A program made the translations under genes and the position numbers. A DNA stretch of 61,967 bases, counting the filler, from a candidate division WOR-3 bacterium (GTDB taxonomy: Bacteria; SDB-A): the NCBI GenBank assembly GCA_016934535.1. It is 5 parts of 5 records of this genome, joined end to end, with 100 filler letters (N's around TTAATTAATTAA, not from the genome) between each part and the next. Parts side by side here need not be neighbours in the genome. Positions count along the whole stretch, not along the records: positions 34,668 to 60,336 come from JAFGSQ010000071.1; 4 more parts are not named here. One strand, written 5' to 3'. Position 1 is the first letter of the stretch; every line of letters starts with the position of its first letter. Positions 10,124 through 60,436 of the stretch are shown here, one piece after another. The notes under the pieces are model-generated. The model had not been told where the DNA came from. It did no database searches and saw only the letters and a program-made list of their open reading frames with translations.

Positions 10124-10134
10124 TAGACGGAATT

Positions 10135-10208
10135 GGGTCCGTAGCTCAGTCGGTTAGAGCATCTGACTCATAATCAGGTGGTCGTAGGTTCGAGTCCTAC
10201 CGGGCCCA
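10135..10208 (+). tRNA. tRNA with CAT anticodon, probably tRNA-Ile2 (lysidine); elongator Met not excluded
   Basis: GGGTCCG/CGGGCCC acceptor, TAGCTCAG D arm, TCTGA-CTCATAA-TCAGG, GGTTCGAGTCC; no initiator features; CCA not encoded. Confidence 0.9.
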
Positions 10209-10219
10209 TTGACAATTAA

Positions 10220-10319
10220 NNNNNNNNNNNNNNNNNNNNNNNNNNNNNNNNNNNNNNNNNNNNTTAATTAATTAANNNNNNNNNNNNNNNNNNNNNNNNN
10301 NNNNNNNNNNNNNNNNNNN
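10220..10319. other. Artificial contig linker
   Basis: N44-TTAATTAATTAA-N44. Confidence 0.97.
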
Positions 10320-15651: not shown

Positions 15652-15725
15652 TCACCCGTACGGGACTCGAACCCGTACTCTTCGGCTTGAAAGGCCGATG
15701 TGTTAACCACTTACACTAACGGGTG
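15652..15725 (-). tRNA. tRNA-Glu(TTC), atypical
   Basis: CACCCGT/ACGGGTG acceptor, GTGT/ACAC D stem, TCGGC-CTTTCAA-GCCGA, ACGGG-TTCGAGT-CCCGT; CCA not encoded. Confidence 0.9.
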
Positions 15726-15737
15726 TTTTTTTTACAC

Positions 15738-15837
15738 NNNNNNNNNNNNNNNNNNNNNNNNNNNNNNNNNNNNNNNNNNNNTTAATTAATTAANNNNNNN
15801 NNNNNNNNNNNNNNNNNNNNNNNNNNNNNNNNNNNNN
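15738..15837. other. Artificial contig linker
   Basis: N44-TTAATTAATTAA-N44. Confidence 0.97.
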
Positions 15838-30266: not shown

Positions 30267-30862
30267 ATGTTTCACGTGAAACATTTATAGATCAATTTAA
30301 TGTAAATTTGGAAAAAATTGATAAACTGCTTTTGTTTGAGAAATTATTAATAGAAACGCTTTCAACACATCAGATAATATCGAGAAAAGATGAAAAAAAG
30401 ATTTGGAACAGACATATCCTCGATAGTTTAATGATGATGTTTCACGTGAAACATTACAATATTGATGTAATAGACGATGTCGGATCGGGAGGGGGTTTTC
30501 CTGGCCTGGTTCTGGCCGTGGTTATAGATGAATTAAAAGTCAGACTTGTCGAAAGAAAAATAAAAAAGTGTAATTTTCTCGCTCAGGTAATAAAAAAACT
30601 TGGATTAAAGAATGTTGATATAATTTGTCGTGATTCATTCGAAAAAAAAATATTTTCAGACTTCTTAGTTACCAGGGCCGTTTTCGGTGAAAAAGCCAGC
30701 GGAAATATTTATAAACTGATTTCGGATAAAGGAATTTTTTTTAACTATCAGAACGAACTATATCCTATAAGTAAATTAAAGATAATAAATAAACTGGATT
30801 ACGTTTTACCTGGTGAAGAAAAAAAGAGATATTTAGTGGCGTACAGAAAATCCTTATTATGA
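30248..30862 (+). CDS. rsmG: 16S rRNA m7G527 methyltransferase (GidB)
   Basis: RHILDS, DVGSGGGFPG, VERKIKKCNFL, VTRA; start uncertain. Confidence 0.88.
   Translation: MGFKLVNVSRETFIDQFNVNLEKIDKLLLFEKLLIETLSTHQIISRKDEKKIWNRHILDSLMMMFHVKHYNIDVIDDVGSGGGFPGLVLAVVIDELKVRLVERKIKKCNFLAQVIKKLGLKNVDIICRDSFEKKIFSDFLVTRAVFGEKASGNIYKLISDKGIFFNYQNELYPISKLKIINKLDYVLPGEEKKRYLVAYRKSLL
30268..30283. promoter_or_regulatory. parS site
   Basis: TGTTTCACGTGAAACA exact canonical parS; palindrome extends to 24 bp (30264-30287). Confidence 0.92.
30438..30453. promoter_or_regulatory. parS site
   Basis: TGTTTCACGTGAAACA exact canonical parS. Confidence 0.92.
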
Positions 30863-31770
30863 AAACGCACACTACAAGAAGTGTATTTTTAGCTTTTATC
30901 GCTATGACACTCTGGTCAACAGTAGCAACGGCTTTTTCTATTGCTCTTAAAAATACCGATTTTTATGAAGTTCTGTTTATTTCAATTAATACATCGACGG
31001 TTGTTTTATTTGCAGCTGTTTTAGTCACCGGGAAATTAAAAAAGATTTTCAACTTGAAAAGTATTTATAAATCTTCTATATATGGGATATTGAATCCATT
31101 TATATACTACATAGTTTTGTTCAAGGCTTATTCGCTTTTAAAAATTCAAGTTGCACAAGGATTGAATTACACATGGCCGATAGTATTGTCTGTGCTGTCA
31201 TTATTTTTTTTAAAACAAAATATGAAGATTAAGGATTTTATTGCTCTTTTTTTAAGTTTCACCGGAGCTCTAATACTTATTTTTGGAACCGGACAAGAGT
31301 CACTTGGTCAAAACAACTTTATCGGAGTGTGTCTGGGAATATTAAGCTCGTTGATATGGTCTTTTTTTTGGATTTTCAATATTAAAGACAAACGTGACGA
31401 TGTTGTAAAAATGTTCCTTAATTTCTTGTTTGGATCTATTTATGTAACGATTTTATTTTTTATAACGCGCGGAACATTTGTTTCATTAAATACGGGTTTC
31501 TATTCTTCTGTTTACATTGGTCTTTTTGAGATGAGTTTGACTTTCATTATATGGATTTTCGCATTGAAAAACTCCGATAAAACATCACGGGTCAGCAATA
31601 TAATTTATCTAACTCCATTTCTTTCACTTGTGTTTATTCATTTTATCGGGCAGGAAAAAATTAAACTGACAACTGTTGTTGGTTTGATTATAATACTTAT
31701 CGGAATATTTATACAGAATCTGGATAAAAAAAAGTGCTTTAAACTGCAAAAATCAGGTGCAGTTTTGTGA
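30859..31770 (+). CDS. DMT/EamA-family transporter
   Basis: About 10 TM segments in two repeats; LWSTVATAF, LNYTWP, IYLTPF. Confidence 0.85.
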   Translation: MKTHTTRSVFLAFIAMTLWSTVATAFSIALKNTDFYEVLFISINTSTVVLFAAVLVTGKLKKIFNLKSIYKSSIYGILNPFIYYIVLFKAYSLLKIQVAQGLNYTWPIVLSVLSLFFLKQNMKIKDFIALFLSFTGALILIFGTGQESLGQNNFIGVCLGILSSLIWSFFWIFNIKDKRDDVVKMFLNFLFGSIYVTILFFITRGTFVSLNTGFYSSVYIGLFEMSLTFIIWIFALKNSDKTSRVSNIIYLTPFLSLVFIHFIGQEKIKLTTVVGLIIILIGIFIQNLDKKKCFKLQKSGAVL

Positions 31771-31779
31771 GAGAGAGAC

Positions 31780-32616
31780 TTGAAAATGCTTTTAAATTCT
31801 TTCTGTCATCTCGACGGGATAAATTTGAAAAGGGAAGAAAAAATCTGGGACAACGGAATCAAGAATTGGGAAGAAGCTTTATCGGCAGAATTTCTCTGTG
31901 ACTCCTCAAAAAACGACCTCCTTGAATTTAGAAAAGGGATTGAACTCTCGTATCAAAAATTAGAAGAAAAAGCCACGGATTATTTTTTTGATAAAATTCC
32001 TCGCGATCAACACTGGAGGTTTTTCAGAGAATTTAAGGACGAGATGGCTTATCTGGACATAGAAACTACAGGATTGACAAGGTTTGATTCTGTGACAGTT
32101 GTTTCTATATATCACAAAGGGAAACTCGGAATCTATGTAAAGGGTATAAATTTCGATAAACTTCTCACGGACATCACAATTCCTAGAATATTTGTTACTT
32201 ACAACGGGAACAAATTCGATTTGCCTTTTCTGGAGAATTATTTTGGAATAAAAATATTTCAAAACAGAATAGACTTGAGATACGTCCTGTCAAATTTGGG
32301 ATACAGAGGCGGTTTAAAGAAATGCGAAAAAATGCTAGGAATTAGTAGAGAAGGAATGAAGAATATAGACGGCAATGTTGCCGTCATGCTTTGGGAAGAT
32401 TATAAACACAACAAAAACATAAAAGCGTTGAAAACTCTAATCGCCTACAACGTATCAGATACTGTAAATCTCGAGAAACTATCTGCAATTGCATATAACG
32501 AAAATGTAAAAAGAACCAAACGTAATTTTGGTTTTTTAGAAATGACGGAAAAAAAATCAGTACCTTTCTTTCCGAATCCAACTACTGTAAAAAAGCTATT
32601 ACAAAATCTAAAATGA
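31780..32616 (+). CDS. RNase H-like (YprB-type) exonuclease
   Basis: YLDIETTGL, TYNGNKFDLPFL, GGLKKCEKMLG, YNVSD. Confidence 0.85.
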   Translation: MKMLLNSFCHLDGINLKREEKIWDNGIKNWEEALSAEFLCDSSKNDLLEFRKGIELSYQKLEEKATDYFFDKIPRDQHWRFFREFKDEMAYLDIETTGLTRFDSVTVVSIYHKGKLGIYVKGINFDKLLTDITIPRIFVTYNGNKFDLPFLENYFGIKIFQNRIDLRYVLSNLGYRGGLKKCEKMLGISREGMKNIDGNVAVMLWEDYKHNKNIKALKTLIAYNVSDTVNLEKLSAIAYNENVKRTKRNFGFLEMTEKKSVPFFPNPTTVKKLLQNLK

Positions 32617-34567: not shown

Positions 34568-34667
34568 NNNNNNNNNNNNNNNNNNNNNNNNNNNNNNNNN
34601 NNNNNNNNNNNTTAATTAATTAANNNNNNNNNNNNNNNNNNNNNNNNNNNNNNNNNNNNNNNNNNNN
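34568..34667. other. Artificial contig linker
   Basis: N44-TTAATTAATTAA-N44. Confidence 0.97.
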
Positions 34668-34754
34668 AGGGCAGGAATCGAACCTGCCACGGACGGTTTT
34701 ATCCGGCCGCTACTGGTTTTGAAGACCAGCTGGACCACCAGATCCTTCCTCTCC
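34668..34754 (-). tRNA. selC: tRNA-Sec(TCA), last few 3' nucleotides cut by contig end
   Basis: GGAGAGG-AA-GGATC-TGGT-GGTCC-A-GCTGGT-CTTCAAA-ACCAGT, long variable arm, GCAGG-TTCGATT-CCTGC-CCT; TCA anticodon, 4-nt D loop, 6-bp anticodon stem. Confidence 0.92.
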
Positions 34755-34763
34755 GAATCAAAA

Positions 34764-34848
34764 ATTATCAATTCAAGCACACAGGTTTGTCAACACATAA
34801 TTGAACAATCTGCCGTATCTTGACTTTGTTTTGCAGCGCAAATATCAT
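34764..34848. promoter_or_regulatory. Back-to-back sigma70-type promoters for selC and the TGA-containing gene
   Basis: Minus strand TTGACA-18-GATAAT (34793-34764); plus strand TTGACT-17-TATCAT (34820-34848). Confidence 0.5.
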
Positions 34849-34874
34849 TTAATATATTTTTCCAGGGAGGCAAC

Positions 34875-36062
34875 ATGTTTTCTTTCATTCTCTGTGCAAT
34901 CATATCTGCCAGCGCGGTCTCTATGCCCGGCGGAAGGATTTACCAAACCTTTGAAAGGTCTGTTCACAACAACAACAATCTCTGGACGGCTCTCGACAGA
35001 CCCGGCGGCGACGTAGGCAGCGTTTCCGGTCCTTCGATGCAGTTTCCCGGAGGCACCGGAATAAACACCCTCTTTCAGGGATGTCAGGCGATAGGTTTTT
35101 CAAGCGGCGCTAATCCTGTAGTCGTCGCCACCCAGCTGTGTTGAGGCGGTCTGACCGAATGGTCAGTGTCCCACAGTTCGTGGGCTTGGATTGACGACTC
35201 TCTCTACAAAAGCTTTTACAGCATGACAGACGTTTATCACGGGACTCAGATATACGTCGAAAGAACAGGTTTTTCATGGTCTCAGGACACAAACGGAGAT
35301 TTCATAGTTTTCGTGAATAAATTTATAAACACATCGCGCGCATCTTATGACAGCGTTTATACGGGATTCTGGTACGACTTCGACATTCCTTCGTCAGCTT
35401 ACAGCGACGACATGGCAGGATATATTTCGGCGGTAAACCTTTGTTACATGTATGACAGCGGCAGTTACACACAGAAGGTCGGAATATGTTTTTTGGAACC
35501 GTCGGGTGCGCACGGAGCTCACTGGTATAATTACGCGACAACTCCGGGAGACGACAACTCTTATTATGCCGCTCTTGGAGACGTGAGCGTTTCCGCATCT
35601 TGGCCGACGACGCCGGCTGATTACAAGATTATGATAAACTGCGGTCCGTACTCCTTCGGTCCGGAAGACACCATAACGATAGCTTACGGTGTAGTCGCGG
35701 GAAACGACGAGAGCGAATTGACTTTAGCCGCGACGAGAATGATTCAACTTTATGACAGCCTCAGCCTGTCAGTCGAAGAGGATCCGATCGCCCAAATACC
35801 CGAGTCATATGAACTTTCGCTGACCGTCGGATTCTTCAACGGAAGAATTTCTGCCGTTTTAAAAATACCTTGTGACGATTGCGTCGAAATAAGCGTTTTT
35901 GACGTTCACGGCAGGGAGGTTCTCGGCGCCTCAAGATTCAACGCCACTCATGGCGAAAACACTTTCTTACTCGACGCAGACAGTTTGAGCAACGGATTAT
36001 ATTTCATCAGGGTATCGTCGGCGTCTGTATGTGCCGTGGGTAAAGTCAGTGTCATAAGATAA
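34875..36062 (+). CDS. Putative secreted selenoprotein, 395 aa, Sec at codon 90, T9SS-like C-terminal domain
   Basis: ORFs 34875-35144 and 35166-36062 share a frame and are separated by one TGA (35142-35144): VATQLC*GGLTEWSV; GGGAGG RBS and signal peptide upstream; C-terminal VFDVHGR...LSNGLYFIRV...KVSVIR. Confidence 0.72.
35145..35170 (+). promoter_or_regulatory. Candidate bacterial SECIS hairpin
   Basis: GGCG-gt-CTGACC-GAAT-GGTCAG-TGTC directly 3' of the TGA; loop begins with G. Confidence 0.6.
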
Positions 36063-36108: not shown

Positions 36109-36705
36109 CTAACATATAAATCCTTCTTCTTCTGCGTTTTCAATCAATTTTTTTGCGTATTCCCACAAAGATTCCGATCCTTCTGCGATGTGTCTGTTCG
36201 CTTCGATTACCTGTTCAAGTTTTATTCCGTGTTTTTTCCACGCTTTTCCGCCTGTCGCGTGATTCTGCATGATAGGTTCGAGTCTGTCTATAGCCGCGGC
36301 GAATCTGGCTTCGGGAGTTTTCTTTTCCTCGAATTCTTTCCAAAGATAAGTAAATTCCGTCCTCAGTTCCTTTGGCAAAAGACCGAAAATCCTGTCGGCC
36401 GCTTTCTTTTCTTTTTCCAGTTTCTCTTCTTTTCTATCCGTGTACAAAATGAAATCACCTGCGTCAATCTCCACCAAGTCGTGAATGAGGACCATTTTTA
36501 TTACTTTTATGATGTCTACCCGTTCGTTGGAATAGTCCTCAAGAACAATCGCCATAATCGCCAGATGCCATGAGTGTTCGGCGTCGTTTTCGTTTCTCGT
36601 GCCGTCAAACAGGTATGTGTGCCGGAAAACTGATTTCAGCTTGTCGACTTCCTTTATGAAATCTATTCTCTGATCAAATGAGCGGTTTTTCTTATTAGTC
36701 CGCAT
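36109..36705 (-). CDS. HD-domain phosphohydrolase (YfbR/HDDC2-like)
   Basis: ENDAEHSWH, LIHDLVEIDAGD, AIDRLEP. Confidence 0.88.
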   Translation of the reverse strand: MRTNKKNRSFDQRIDFIKEVDKLKSVFRHTYLFDGTRNENDAEHSWHLAIMAIVLEDYSNERVDIIKVIKMVLIHDLVEIDAGDFILYTDRKEEKLEKEKKAADRIFGLLPKELRTEFTYLWKEFEEKKTPEARFAAAIDRLEPIMQNHATGGKAWKKHGIKLEQVIEANRHIAEGSESLWEYAKKLIENAEEEGFIC

Positions 36706-36730: not shown

Positions 36731-37672
36731 TCAGTCCTCGCGGTTCAGCATCCTCTTATTCAGCTTATCGAAAAATTCTTCGTGCAGAGGTGTTTTCAAA
36801 CCCAATTTTTTTCCTTCCTCGACAACGTATCCCGCAAGAACGTCTATTTCCGTGTTTTTTCCTGCCTTGAAATCTCTCTGAAAAGAAGTCTTTGTTTCCC
36901 TTGAAAAAGTCAGTATCCTGCTTAAATTTTCCTGTACGTCTTTCTCTCCCAAAGGCACTCCTTTAGCGTTGGCAAGCTCGACTATTTCCTCCATCATAGA
37001 AACAAACTTCCGGTTTTTTTCGCCGTCTTCCGCTATCTCCCCCGCCGTACAGTTGTAAAAAGAAGAAAGAGTGGAAAACGGGCACAAAATGAGGAACTTT
37101 TCCCATTCCTTCCTCTTTATGTCCCTGTCAAAAAAAGCCTTTATTCTCGCGTTTTTAAGGACATCGAGCAATTCTCTGTGCCTGTTTTCATCCGATCCCT
37201 CGGAACCAAAGAATAACTTCCCGGCAGAACCTGTCTGTTTCACTACGCCCGGATAAAGAACTTCCGAACTGACATAAACACATCCTCCGAGGACTTCGGC
37301 GTAAGGGAAACTCGTCTTTATTTTTTCCTCCGTACCGATTCCATTCAAAAGCGATATCAGAACTGTGTTTTGAGCGACGTTACTTTTCAGAAGTTTCAGA
37401 ACTTCATCTAGCTGGTAACTCTTTACGCATAAAAATACGTGCGTAAAAATCCCGAGATCCGAGGGATCGTCAGTCACCATGTCGGGAAACGTGACATACT
37501 TGTTTTGTTCAGTGAGGAGCGTGATGCCGTTTTTTTTGAGAACCATGAGCCCCTCGCCTCTCTGTATGAAAATCACGTGATAGGATTTTATCGGATCTCT
37601 GAAATGGCAGAGTCTCGCCCCGAGATAACCTCCTACTCCTCCGACACCGACTATAGCTATTCTCATTTTCAT
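36731..37672 (-). CDS. panE: 2-dehydropantoate 2-reductase
   Basis: GVGGVGG, CVKSY, LLNG, WEKF, TSFQRD, TEID. Confidence 0.85.
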   Translation of the reverse strand: MKMRIAIVGVGGVGGYLGARLCHFRDPIKSYHVIFIQRGEGLMVLKKNGITLLTEQNKYVTFPDMVTDDPSDLGIFTHVFLCVKSYQLDEVLKLLKSNVAQNTVLISLLNGIGTEEKIKTSFPYAEVLGGCVYVSSEVLYPGVVKQTGSAGKLFFGSEGSDENRHRELLDVLKNARIKAFFDRDIKRKEWEKFLILCPFSTLSSFYNCTAGEIAEDGEKNRKFVSMMEEIVELANAKGVPLGEKDVQENLSRILTFSRETKTSFQRDFKAGKNTEIDVLAGYVVEEGKKLGLKTPLHEEFFDKLNKRMLNRED

Positions 37673-60336: not shown

Positions 60337-60436
60337 NNNNNNNNNNNNNNNNNNNNNNNNNNNNNNNNNNNNNNNNNNNNTTAATTAATTAANNNNNNNN
60401 NNNNNNNNNNNNNNNNNNNNNNNNNNNNNNNNNNNN
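60337..60436. other. Artificial contig linker
   Basis: N44-TTAATTAATTAA-N44. Confidence 0.97.

Follow-up and report, generated by a model that had tools for sequence, protein, structure and literature searches.

A probable selenoprotein with a type IX secretion sorting domain, encoded head-to-head with the tRNA-Sec gene of a candidate division WOR-3 bacterium

The DNA analysed here, hereafter the window, is a stretch of 61,967 nucleotides (nt) from a candidate division WOR-3 bacterium (assembly GCA_016934535.1), in which positions 34875 to 36062 hold two open reading frames (ORFs) separated by a TGA. We conclude that they are very probably one gene, in which selenocysteine (Sec, U) is inserted at the UGA of codon 90. 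It is strongly supported that this UGA is kept by selection and followed by a conserved RNA element. Support is equally strong for the gene being a type-1 (C-U-G-G) member of a monophyletic Sec clade, placed within a larger uncharacterised domain family found in cargo of the type IX secretion system (T9SS), and for the type-1 gene being a conserved divergent neighbour of selC-selA-selB in relatives. The original prediction had described an exported selenoprotein of 395 amino acids (aa) belonging to no recognised family, a description supported by the TGA in 11 of 11 related genes, the RNA signal, the Sec machinery of relatives and the lack of a Pfam or NCBIfam model for the family. The main elements of the gene are these:

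34875–36062, plus strand: the whole proposed selenoprotein gene, with 395 codons before the TAA; codon 90 is the one for Sec, its TGA conserved in relatives.
35139–35144, plus strand: the Cys89-Sec90 codons TGT-TGA, placed by the AlphaFold2 model in a loop between strands 80–84 and 96–106; U is found in 11 of 11 members of the Sec clade and Cys89 in 10 of 11.
34865–34870, plus strand: Shine-Dalgarno sequence GGGAGG, 4 nt upstream of the ATG.
34820–34848, plus strand: promoter-like TTGACT-17-TATCAT before the gene, with 10 of 12 consensus matches and nothing further.

The two ORF calls, 34875–35144 (89 aa, ATG start) and 35166–36062 (298 aa, GTG start), lie in the same plus-strand frame, which is interrupted once, by the TGA at 35142–35144 in the codon context TGT-TGA-GGC-GGT; when this codon is read as U, the frame runs on with a single recoded residue, U90. 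The earlier description of a single frame split at codon 90, with a GGGAGG ribosome-binding site and a promoter ahead of its upstream part, was thus confirmed, the promoter as a consensus match. It had also proposed a downstream part without start signals of its own, and in the window this part indeed has no ATG and no signal, just the internal GTG at 35166. All 12 genes of the family, those of the relatives described below together with the one in the window, have a purine-rich site of the GGAG/GGAGG type in the 20 nt upstream of the ATG, plus a hydrophobic N-terminus. No paralog of the gene was found inside the window.

A first question is whether UGA is simply a sense codon in this organism. 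TGA is the commonest stop of the window ORFs of at least 200 aa, ending 22 of 42 of them (TAA 14, TAG 6), and a genetic code with TGA as sense is therefore excluded. This bears directly on the explanation that the UGA is read as an ordinary residue (Trp, Cys, Gly or Arg), either by near-cognate decoding or through an altered code, which we hold to be highly improbable. It could draw on the folding energy of the hairpin, unremarkable when the sequence is folded singly. It has to face, besides a standard code, the occurrence of exactly one TGA per gene, always in one column, the hairpin fitting the model of bacterial Sec insertion elements and the synonymous-site conservation that follow this TGA, and the presence of selC next to the gene and of selA, selB and selD in relatives.

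Evidence that the codon is maintained comes from homologues that cross it. A scan of species-representative genomes returned a single locus, L001 in genome G001, with 69% identity over residues 26–395, that is, across the stop. It has a tRNA-Sec head-to-head with the gene and keeps the same frame, ...CAG CTG TGT TGA GGA GGG CTG ACC GAA TGG..., in which the two Gly codons after the TGA differ synonymously from those of the window. The labels of these records disagree, the genome of L001 being recorded as 'uncultured Desulfuromonadaceae bacterium' and the orthologous proteins at NCBI as 'candidate division WOR-3 bacterium'. A scan of metagenome contigs gave one weak locus, L002 (30% identity over residues 195–270), which was not used further.

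When the read-through protein was searched against all 5 genomes of the phylum group of G001, 11 genes were found that cover most of the query at 33–69% protein identity, each with exactly one TGA; the other matches were to the sorting tail alone. In translation, U falls in one alignment column in the 11 relatives and the window, in residue contexts such as ..QLCUGGLTEW, ..KLCUHMINEW and ..GGNUGSALNW. Homologues with either TGA or Cys in this column had been anticipated; TGA is kept in 11 of 11 genes from the 5 genomes, and the Cys form was never found. Each related genome carries 2–3 Sec-containing paralogs, which by their motif fall into three types:

Type 1, motif C-U-G-G/T: the window gene and loci L013–L018.
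Type 2, motif C-U-H-M: loci L019–L022.
Type 3, motif N-U-G-S: locus L023.

Within this clade U90 is present in 11 of 11 members, Cys89 in 10 and Cys70 in 8, with Ser or Asp replacing the last of these in the others, so that the idea of Cys70 as a further partner, also part of the original prediction, fares poorly.

Protein databases give the same picture from the side of the fragments. The five relatives retrieved by a word-index protein search are all 239–302 aa long and cover just the part after the TGA; two of the five bear the name 'T9SS type A sorting domain-containing protein [candidate division WOR-3 bacterium]'. An exhaustive HMMER search of 1.84 billion representatives produced 410 matches at E <=1e-3, and all of those below E 1e-28 are fragments, from the C-terminal side (275–302 aa) or the N-terminal side (89–96 aa). 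The N-terminal fragment representatives, 6 of 6, terminate in ...L-C, immediately before the stop, and two of them (ending ..NGLC) come from outside the five genomes. Trp, Arg or Gly at the Sec column, which had been named as the mark of a pseudogene, occurs in no close homologue.

A further comparison comes from a second study, four of whose wastewater runs contain about a fifth of the sequence words of the stretch. In one of these runs an 11.6-kb contig extends over the entire gene; it shows 78 differences, and one indel that lies outside the gene. Among the differences listed, none lies between 35121 and 35242, a span that holds the TGA and both hairpins, and 18 lie in the preceding 312 nt, a suggestive observation only. 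This wastewater relative (run X2) has GTG and not ATG as its start codon (C>G at 34874, A>G at 34875). In the probable source sample, a 5.2-kb contig at a depth about ten times higher matches 35160–35386 and 35613–35653 at ~88% (27 and 4 differences) and is divergent between them, which looks like a second, more abundant relative with a homologous gene.

That the gene is a pseudogene, or its TGA an assembly or sequencing error, can hardly be entertained in view of this pattern. Annotation pipelines do call two pieces, and a frameshift and a TAG disrupt one paralog, L022, as well; yet 11 independent genes of 5 genomes (33–69% identity) share the same TGA, as do 6 of 6 clusters of N-terminal fragments, both halves are conserved, and the contig of the second study has no listed change around the TGA. 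The broken paralog is a case of its own: this type-2 copy (L022 / L024, G001:C30:12491-13641) keeps its Sec-TGA and acquires the frameshift and TAG after ~residue 236, the TAG being also the end of the public gene call P0019 (146 aa); the copy is either in decay or misassembled.

The second line of evidence is the RNA that follows the UGA. A hairpin had been noticed after the TGA, and two are found:

35151–35166, plus strand: hairpin 1, CUGACC-GAAU-GGUCAG, beginning 6 nt after the UGA, with compensatory changes in 3 of its 6 pairs.
35170–35184, plus strand: hairpin 2, CCCAC-AGUUC-GUGGG, the probable apical stem-loop of a selenocysteine insertion sequence (SECIS), from the RNAalifold consensus of 12 sequences, with 91.7% of cells paired.

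Their support is due to the comparison with relatives and not to the fold of the single sequence. The 12 sequences align gaplessly from −6 to +57 around the TGA, and when both helices are laid on this alignment 79.5% of 132 cells pair, versus 28.8–41.7% when the 3′ partners are slid by 1–3 columns. Hairpin 1 occurs in all 7 type-1 genes, with compensatory A-U/U-A and U-A/C-G changes that swap the residues T-E-W-S and S-E-W-T, and in type 3 GGCCC-UAAAUU-GGGCC takes its place, offset by one column. Two-sided changes affect 4 of the 11 hairpin pairs. The covariation score of 0.244 (shuffled mean 0.153) was reached by 0 of 500 shuffles, a comparison to be read with the caveat that sequences which are related may outscore shuffles even where no structure exists. 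Independently of any structure model, the use of identical codons among same-residue pairs is 0.727 (202/278) in codons +1 to +15 versus 0.420 (3296/7852) elsewhere, and the 15-codon windows right after the TGA show the highest synonymous-codon conservation of the gene. Both the covariation score and this excess of synonymous conservation agree with the covarying hairpin that had been proposed as a check.

The published model of bacterial SECIS elements (bSECIS; PMC13188914, section 5) calls for an apical loop of 3–9 nt, an upper stem of 4–16 base pairs (bp) and a minimum free energy (MFE) that does not exceed -7.5 kcal/mol. It further places a G at loop position 1 or 2, in most cases with G or U after it, and a spacing of 16–37 nt between UGA and loop (PMC13188914). 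Hairpin 2 fits this model, with a stem of 5 bp, the loop AGUUC (G at position 2, then U), a spacing of 30 and an MFE of -17.3 kcal/mol over +1 to +60. A purpose-written ungapped scanner, which is not bSECISearch, found a model-fitting hairpin at <=-5 kcal/mol in 10 of the 12 family genes; in a control that took every TGA triplet of either window strand, 81 of 2459 had one.

The third line of evidence lies just upstream, on the opposite strand, where the features are as follows:

34668–34754, minus strand: visible part of the tRNA-Sec gene (selC), anticodon TCA; Rfam RF01852, 50.7 bits, E 1.6e-8.
34764–34793, minus strand: promoter-like TTGACA-18-GATAAT upstream of selC, a match to consensus alone (11 of 12).
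34568–34667, no strand: N44-TTAATTAATTAA-N44 spacer, read as a contig join that truncates the 3′ end of the tRNA-Sec; identical spacers stand elsewhere in the window.

The Rfam match covers 34670–34749 on the minus strand and exceeds the gathering score of 47. The 5′ end of selC, read from the sequence at 34754, is head-to-head with the selenoprotein gene and 120 nt from its ATG, in agreement with the distance of about 120 bp first described. About 7 nt of its 3′ acceptor strand are missing into the spacer, intact orthologues being 94 nt long (ARAGORN), and because of this cut ARAGORN made no tRNA-Sec call in the window. The same N44-spacer occurs at 10220–10319, 15738–15837, 34568–34667 and 60337–60436, which looks like five contigs joined by a linker with stops in six frames; 3 of the 4 joins adjoin a tRNA gene, namely tRNA-Met (10134–10209), tRNA-Glu (15652–15725) and the cut tRNA-Sec.

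In the 5 related genomes, selA and selB both score above their curated cut-offs and selD is also present, in 4 of them (G001, G003, G004 and G005) as a copy with an internal TGA. ARAGORN places a tRNA-SeC beside the type-1 gene in G001, G002, G003 and G005, and in these four the gene order is selB-selA-selC, contiguous, followed by the type-1 gene on the opposite strand. In G004 the type-1 gene begins 275 nt from one contig end and selA lies 137 nt from another; selC is thus the point at which this assembly is broken, as is the case in the window. The head-to-head linkage with selCAB is kept across genomes at only ~40% protein identity, and this adjacency suggests a link to selenium handling or co-regulation. 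The same relatives probably encode further selenoproteins: in 3 of the 5, formate-dehydrogenase-like (molybdopterin-oxidoreductase) matches with 1–2 in-frame TGA codons were observed, below the cut-off of the FdhA family (G001:C6:22492-23229, G003:C105:15393-16121 and G004:C31:1569-2333).

The protein that would result from reading through the UGA can be divided into three regions:

34875–34934, plus strand: hydrophobic N-terminus, ~residues 1–20, a probable signal peptide of the general secretory pathway, recognised by eye; the predicted local distance difference test (pLDDT) score is <50 at residues 1–27.
34956–35768, plus strand: β-supersandwich (galactose-mutarotase-like) core, ~residues 28–298, spanning the TGA, from the AlphaFold2 model and its best structural match, 1ulv_A (Z 21.2), with which Foldseek agrees.
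35811–36059, plus strand: C-terminal β-sandwich, a T9SS type A sorting domain, residues 313–395 (Pfam 337–385); PF18962, with strands at 313–393 in the model.

AlphaFold2, run on an alignment of 43 rows, returned a model with a mean pLDDT of 86.6 and low confidence just at residues 1–27 and 297–309. In this predicted model the core (residues 28–298, pLDDT mostly >90) is a single supersandwich that runs across the position of the stop. Comparison with 48,161 chains by VIA-align placed first the N-domain of glucodextranase 1ulv_A (Z 21.2, root-mean-square deviation 3.0, 229 aligned residues), followed by glucoamylase 1lf6_A (Z 20.9), dextran dextrinase 9ju0 (Z 20.8) and 7w2t (Z 19.0), with the N-domains of glycoside hydrolase (GH) families GH94, GH116 and GH65 and the galactose mutarotases at Z 13–19. 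Whole-domain superposition of the model on many galactose-mutarotase-like members reaches Z 15–21 over 200–258 residues, a likeness of fold only, and Foldseek is concordant (E 1e-8 to 1e-6). No Pfam or NCBIfam model matches the core domain, either in the window protein or in 9 distant homologues, where the core comes after BNR, subtilase or cohesin/dockerin modules and before the sorting tail.

The T9SS-like sorting domain announced for the C-terminus was recovered as PF18962 (Por_Secre_tail) at 27.3 bits, over the cut-off of 27, and the relatives from the word-index search carry PF18962 as well. A model of a PorU-like sortase, NF033707, matches in 5 of 5 relatives, above its cut-off in 3. At the other end of the protein, residues 1–16 are hydrophobic by eye, with A-S-A at 12–14, and the type-2 paralogs have canonical signals of K/R, a hydrophobic stretch and an AXA-like site.

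This architecture helps to weigh another explanation, in which the UGA is a true termination codon or a selenium-dependent switch, giving an 89-residue exported peptide and the full-length protein just with selenium or never. Adjacency of the gene to selC-selA-selB in 4 of 5 relatives would fit such selenium sensing, the upstream part has its own Shine-Dalgarno sequence and hydrophobic leader, and there is no Cys homologue from which a chemical role of the residue could be argued. We nevertheless judge it very unlikely. The 89-residue piece is the start of one β-supersandwich and would be unable to fold by itself. Beyond the UGA, purifying selection is clear in 11 genes, and in the window this part lacks an ATG or signal of its own; conservation of the adjacent Cys in 10 of 11 members points to chemistry. 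Moreover, a switch would still need Sec decoding, which makes it a variant of the selenoprotein reading and not an alternative to it.

The position of the Sec genes among their relatives was examined with a FastTree phylogeny built from 43 core-domain sequences over 277 columns, from which, as from the alignments, the frameshifted L022 was left out. The 11 Sec sequences form one clade with a support of 0.992, and its sister (support 0.949) is P0014, which has neither Sec nor Cys at the site. P0014 is also the first full-length match of the HMMER search (E 1.3e-27); like other distant homologues it is continuous through the site, where these proteins have a variable loop without Cys or stop, just ahead of a conserved E/D-W.

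Several results weigh against a gene that encodes an exported selenoprotein. One is that no Cys-for-Sec homologue was found among the 410 HMMER matches, nor among the listed rows of 32 aligned distant homologues. This removes the classic argument from Sec/Cys pairs and is unusual for selenoproteins; a few accepted selenoprotein families also lack Cys forms, so that the missing Cys form lowers the support and does not exclude membership among selenoproteins. As regards the RNA, the single-sequence folding energy after the TGA lies within the range of chance (z = -0.68, with 53 of 200 shuffles as good). Hairpin 1 is poorly formed or lacking in the four type-2 genes, hairpin 2 being extended there to 10–11 bp, and L019 (-4.5) and L021 (-2.5) miss the ungapped bSECIS rule, longer alternative stems being present. 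Of the machinery that had been proposed for searching, selA, selB and selD were all found in 5 of 5 relatives, but selA and selB have no match within the 62-kb window (tblastn, E 1e-3), which shows selC alone. With respect to export, TIGR04183 scores 22.4 bits, just below its cut-off of 23, and the proposed signal peptide shows, by eye, a hydrophobic N-terminus and, in type 1, no basic n-region. Finally, no terminator-like site was found by the site scan.

On the reading of one gene with Sec at codon 90, expression very probably proceeds as follows. Translation starts at the ATG at 34875, and the SECIS lies in the 45 nt of the ORF after the UGA, with hairpin 2 as its apical part and hairpin 1 as a lower element that varies between lineages. 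By what is generally known of SelB, the hairpin would recruit SelB·GTP·Sec-tRNASec, which would decode UGA-90, the tRNA-Sec used being very probably the one encoded 120 nt upstream on the other strand. Judging by the domain content, the hydrophobic leader would take the chain through SecYEG, the translocon of the general secretory pathway, and the type A sorting domain would hand the protein to the T9SS, where PorU would cleave it and attach it at the surface, or it would be released.

The function of the residue is a more tentative matter. It is possible, somewhat short of an even chance in our estimate, that Cys89-Sec90 forms, in an exposed loop, a selenenylsulfide redox site or a soft-metal/chalcogen site outside the cell, which would derive from Sec insertion and not from replacement of a Cys. 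Such a functional reading is an analogy of motif, weakened by the presence of Cys70 in just 8 of 11 members and the absence of Cys89 in 1 of 11. A further proposal, which we regard as rather doubtful, is that Sec was acquired de novo in a variable surface loop of a carbohydrate-enzyme-like β-sandwich with no Cys ancestor, giving an extracellular, selenium-based reactive site on a protein displayed by the T9SS, with the type-1 protein tied to selenium metabolism; in that case it might serve the capture or handling of selenium, sulfur or metals on the cell surface, and its regulation might be shared with that of the Sec machinery. If this proposal were true, the protein would represent a new functional class of bacterial selenoprotein, outside thiol-oxidoreductases and metalloenzymes.

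As for its place among known systems, the recoding mechanism is the ordinary bacterial one. As in other bacterial genes decoded through SelB, the in-frame UGA has a stem-loop directly behind it and selC, selA, selB and selD are present in the lineage. Escherichia coli fdhF is the prototype of selenoprotein genes with the SECIS inside the ORF; the window gene differs from this type in that its protein is no formate dehydrogenase and in that types 1 and 3 have an extra covarying hairpin, which separates the UGA from the hairpin that fits the model. The predicted β-supersandwich resembles the N-domains of GH15 glucoamylase/glucodextranase and of GH94/GH116, from which the window protein departs by an identity of 7–12% and the lack of a catalytic (alpha/alpha)6 domain, and the shared fold shows no function. 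To our knowledge, no matched GH protein is a selenoprotein.

The motif itself invites comparison with thioredoxin reductase, whose mammalian form has G-C-U-G, and with the families that carry a CU motif: the window protein likewise has a vicinal Cys-Sec followed by Gly (L-C-U-G-G), with Cys89 in 10 of 11 members, a resemblance that favours the idea of a selenenylsulfide or of a pair of soft-metal ligands. The likeness to the thioredoxin reductase centre is one of local motif alone: that centre is a dyad penultimate at the C-terminus of a pyridine-nucleotide disulfide oxidoreductase, and here the dyad lies at residues 89–90 of 395 and there is no flavoprotein domain. The CU-motif families entered in the available part of Table 1 of PMC13188914 comprise SaoL, SaoC, HgcA, MbdU, KCU-star and the Csac_0668 family. 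No relation to them by sequence emerged; an NCBIfam scan with hits admitted up to E 1 matched none of their models. The window motif also differs from these systems in its setting, an internal loop of a secreted β-sandwich and not the C-terminus of a flavoenzyme or a metal-handling operon, and one member of its family has N-U in place of C-U.

New selenoprotein families turn up regularly. Table 1 of the 2026 review PMC13188914, in the part available, counts 119 prokaryotic selenoprotein families and subfamilies, most of them using thioredoxin-like or other redox motifs, and that part contains no entry recognisable as a supersandwich or T9SS-tail family; BSepDB (PMC13326102), likewise a source available in part, reports 111 families. 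NCBIfam release 20 and Pfam, scanned at E up to 1, matched the sorting tail alone. Literature searches for selenoproteins with type IX secretion gave nothing related, and those with WOR-3 gave none. That the family is undescribed is therefore a provisional conclusion, which rests on the 119-family table as far as it is available, the model scans and the literature search.

What sets the family apart is the combination of Sec in a large non-redox β-sandwich, probable T9SS export and the lack of any Cys form among those found, together with 2–3 paralogs per small genome, one copy of which is fixed beside selC-selA-selB. The recognition of selenoproteins usually leans on Cys-containing homologues. 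Searches for Sec/Cys pairs and standard gene callers miss whole families of this kind, all the public protein records found here being fragments, and the annotation of these genomes should merge the two ORFs. The family also offers a tractable case for probing selenium chemistry outside the bacterial cell.

Some minor observations can be added. Two metatranscriptome runs of the probable source study gave no transcripts on the stretch, which is no evidence either way. A second in-frame TGA of the window, at 31768 in the frame 30817–32616, was considered as a selenoprotein candidate and rejected, as it ends a gene that by eye is membrane-transporter-like and is followed by a separate gene with an ATG start. 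Downstream of the selenoprotein gene and convergent with it are two minus-strand ORFs, 36109–36705 (198 aa) and 36731–37672 (313 aa). In G001, ORFs of 197 and 308 aa (L001 11027–11620 and 11653–12579) have a like size, order and strand, by which alone they are taken to correspond, and an ORF of 1285 aa is inserted there between the selenoprotein gene and these two.

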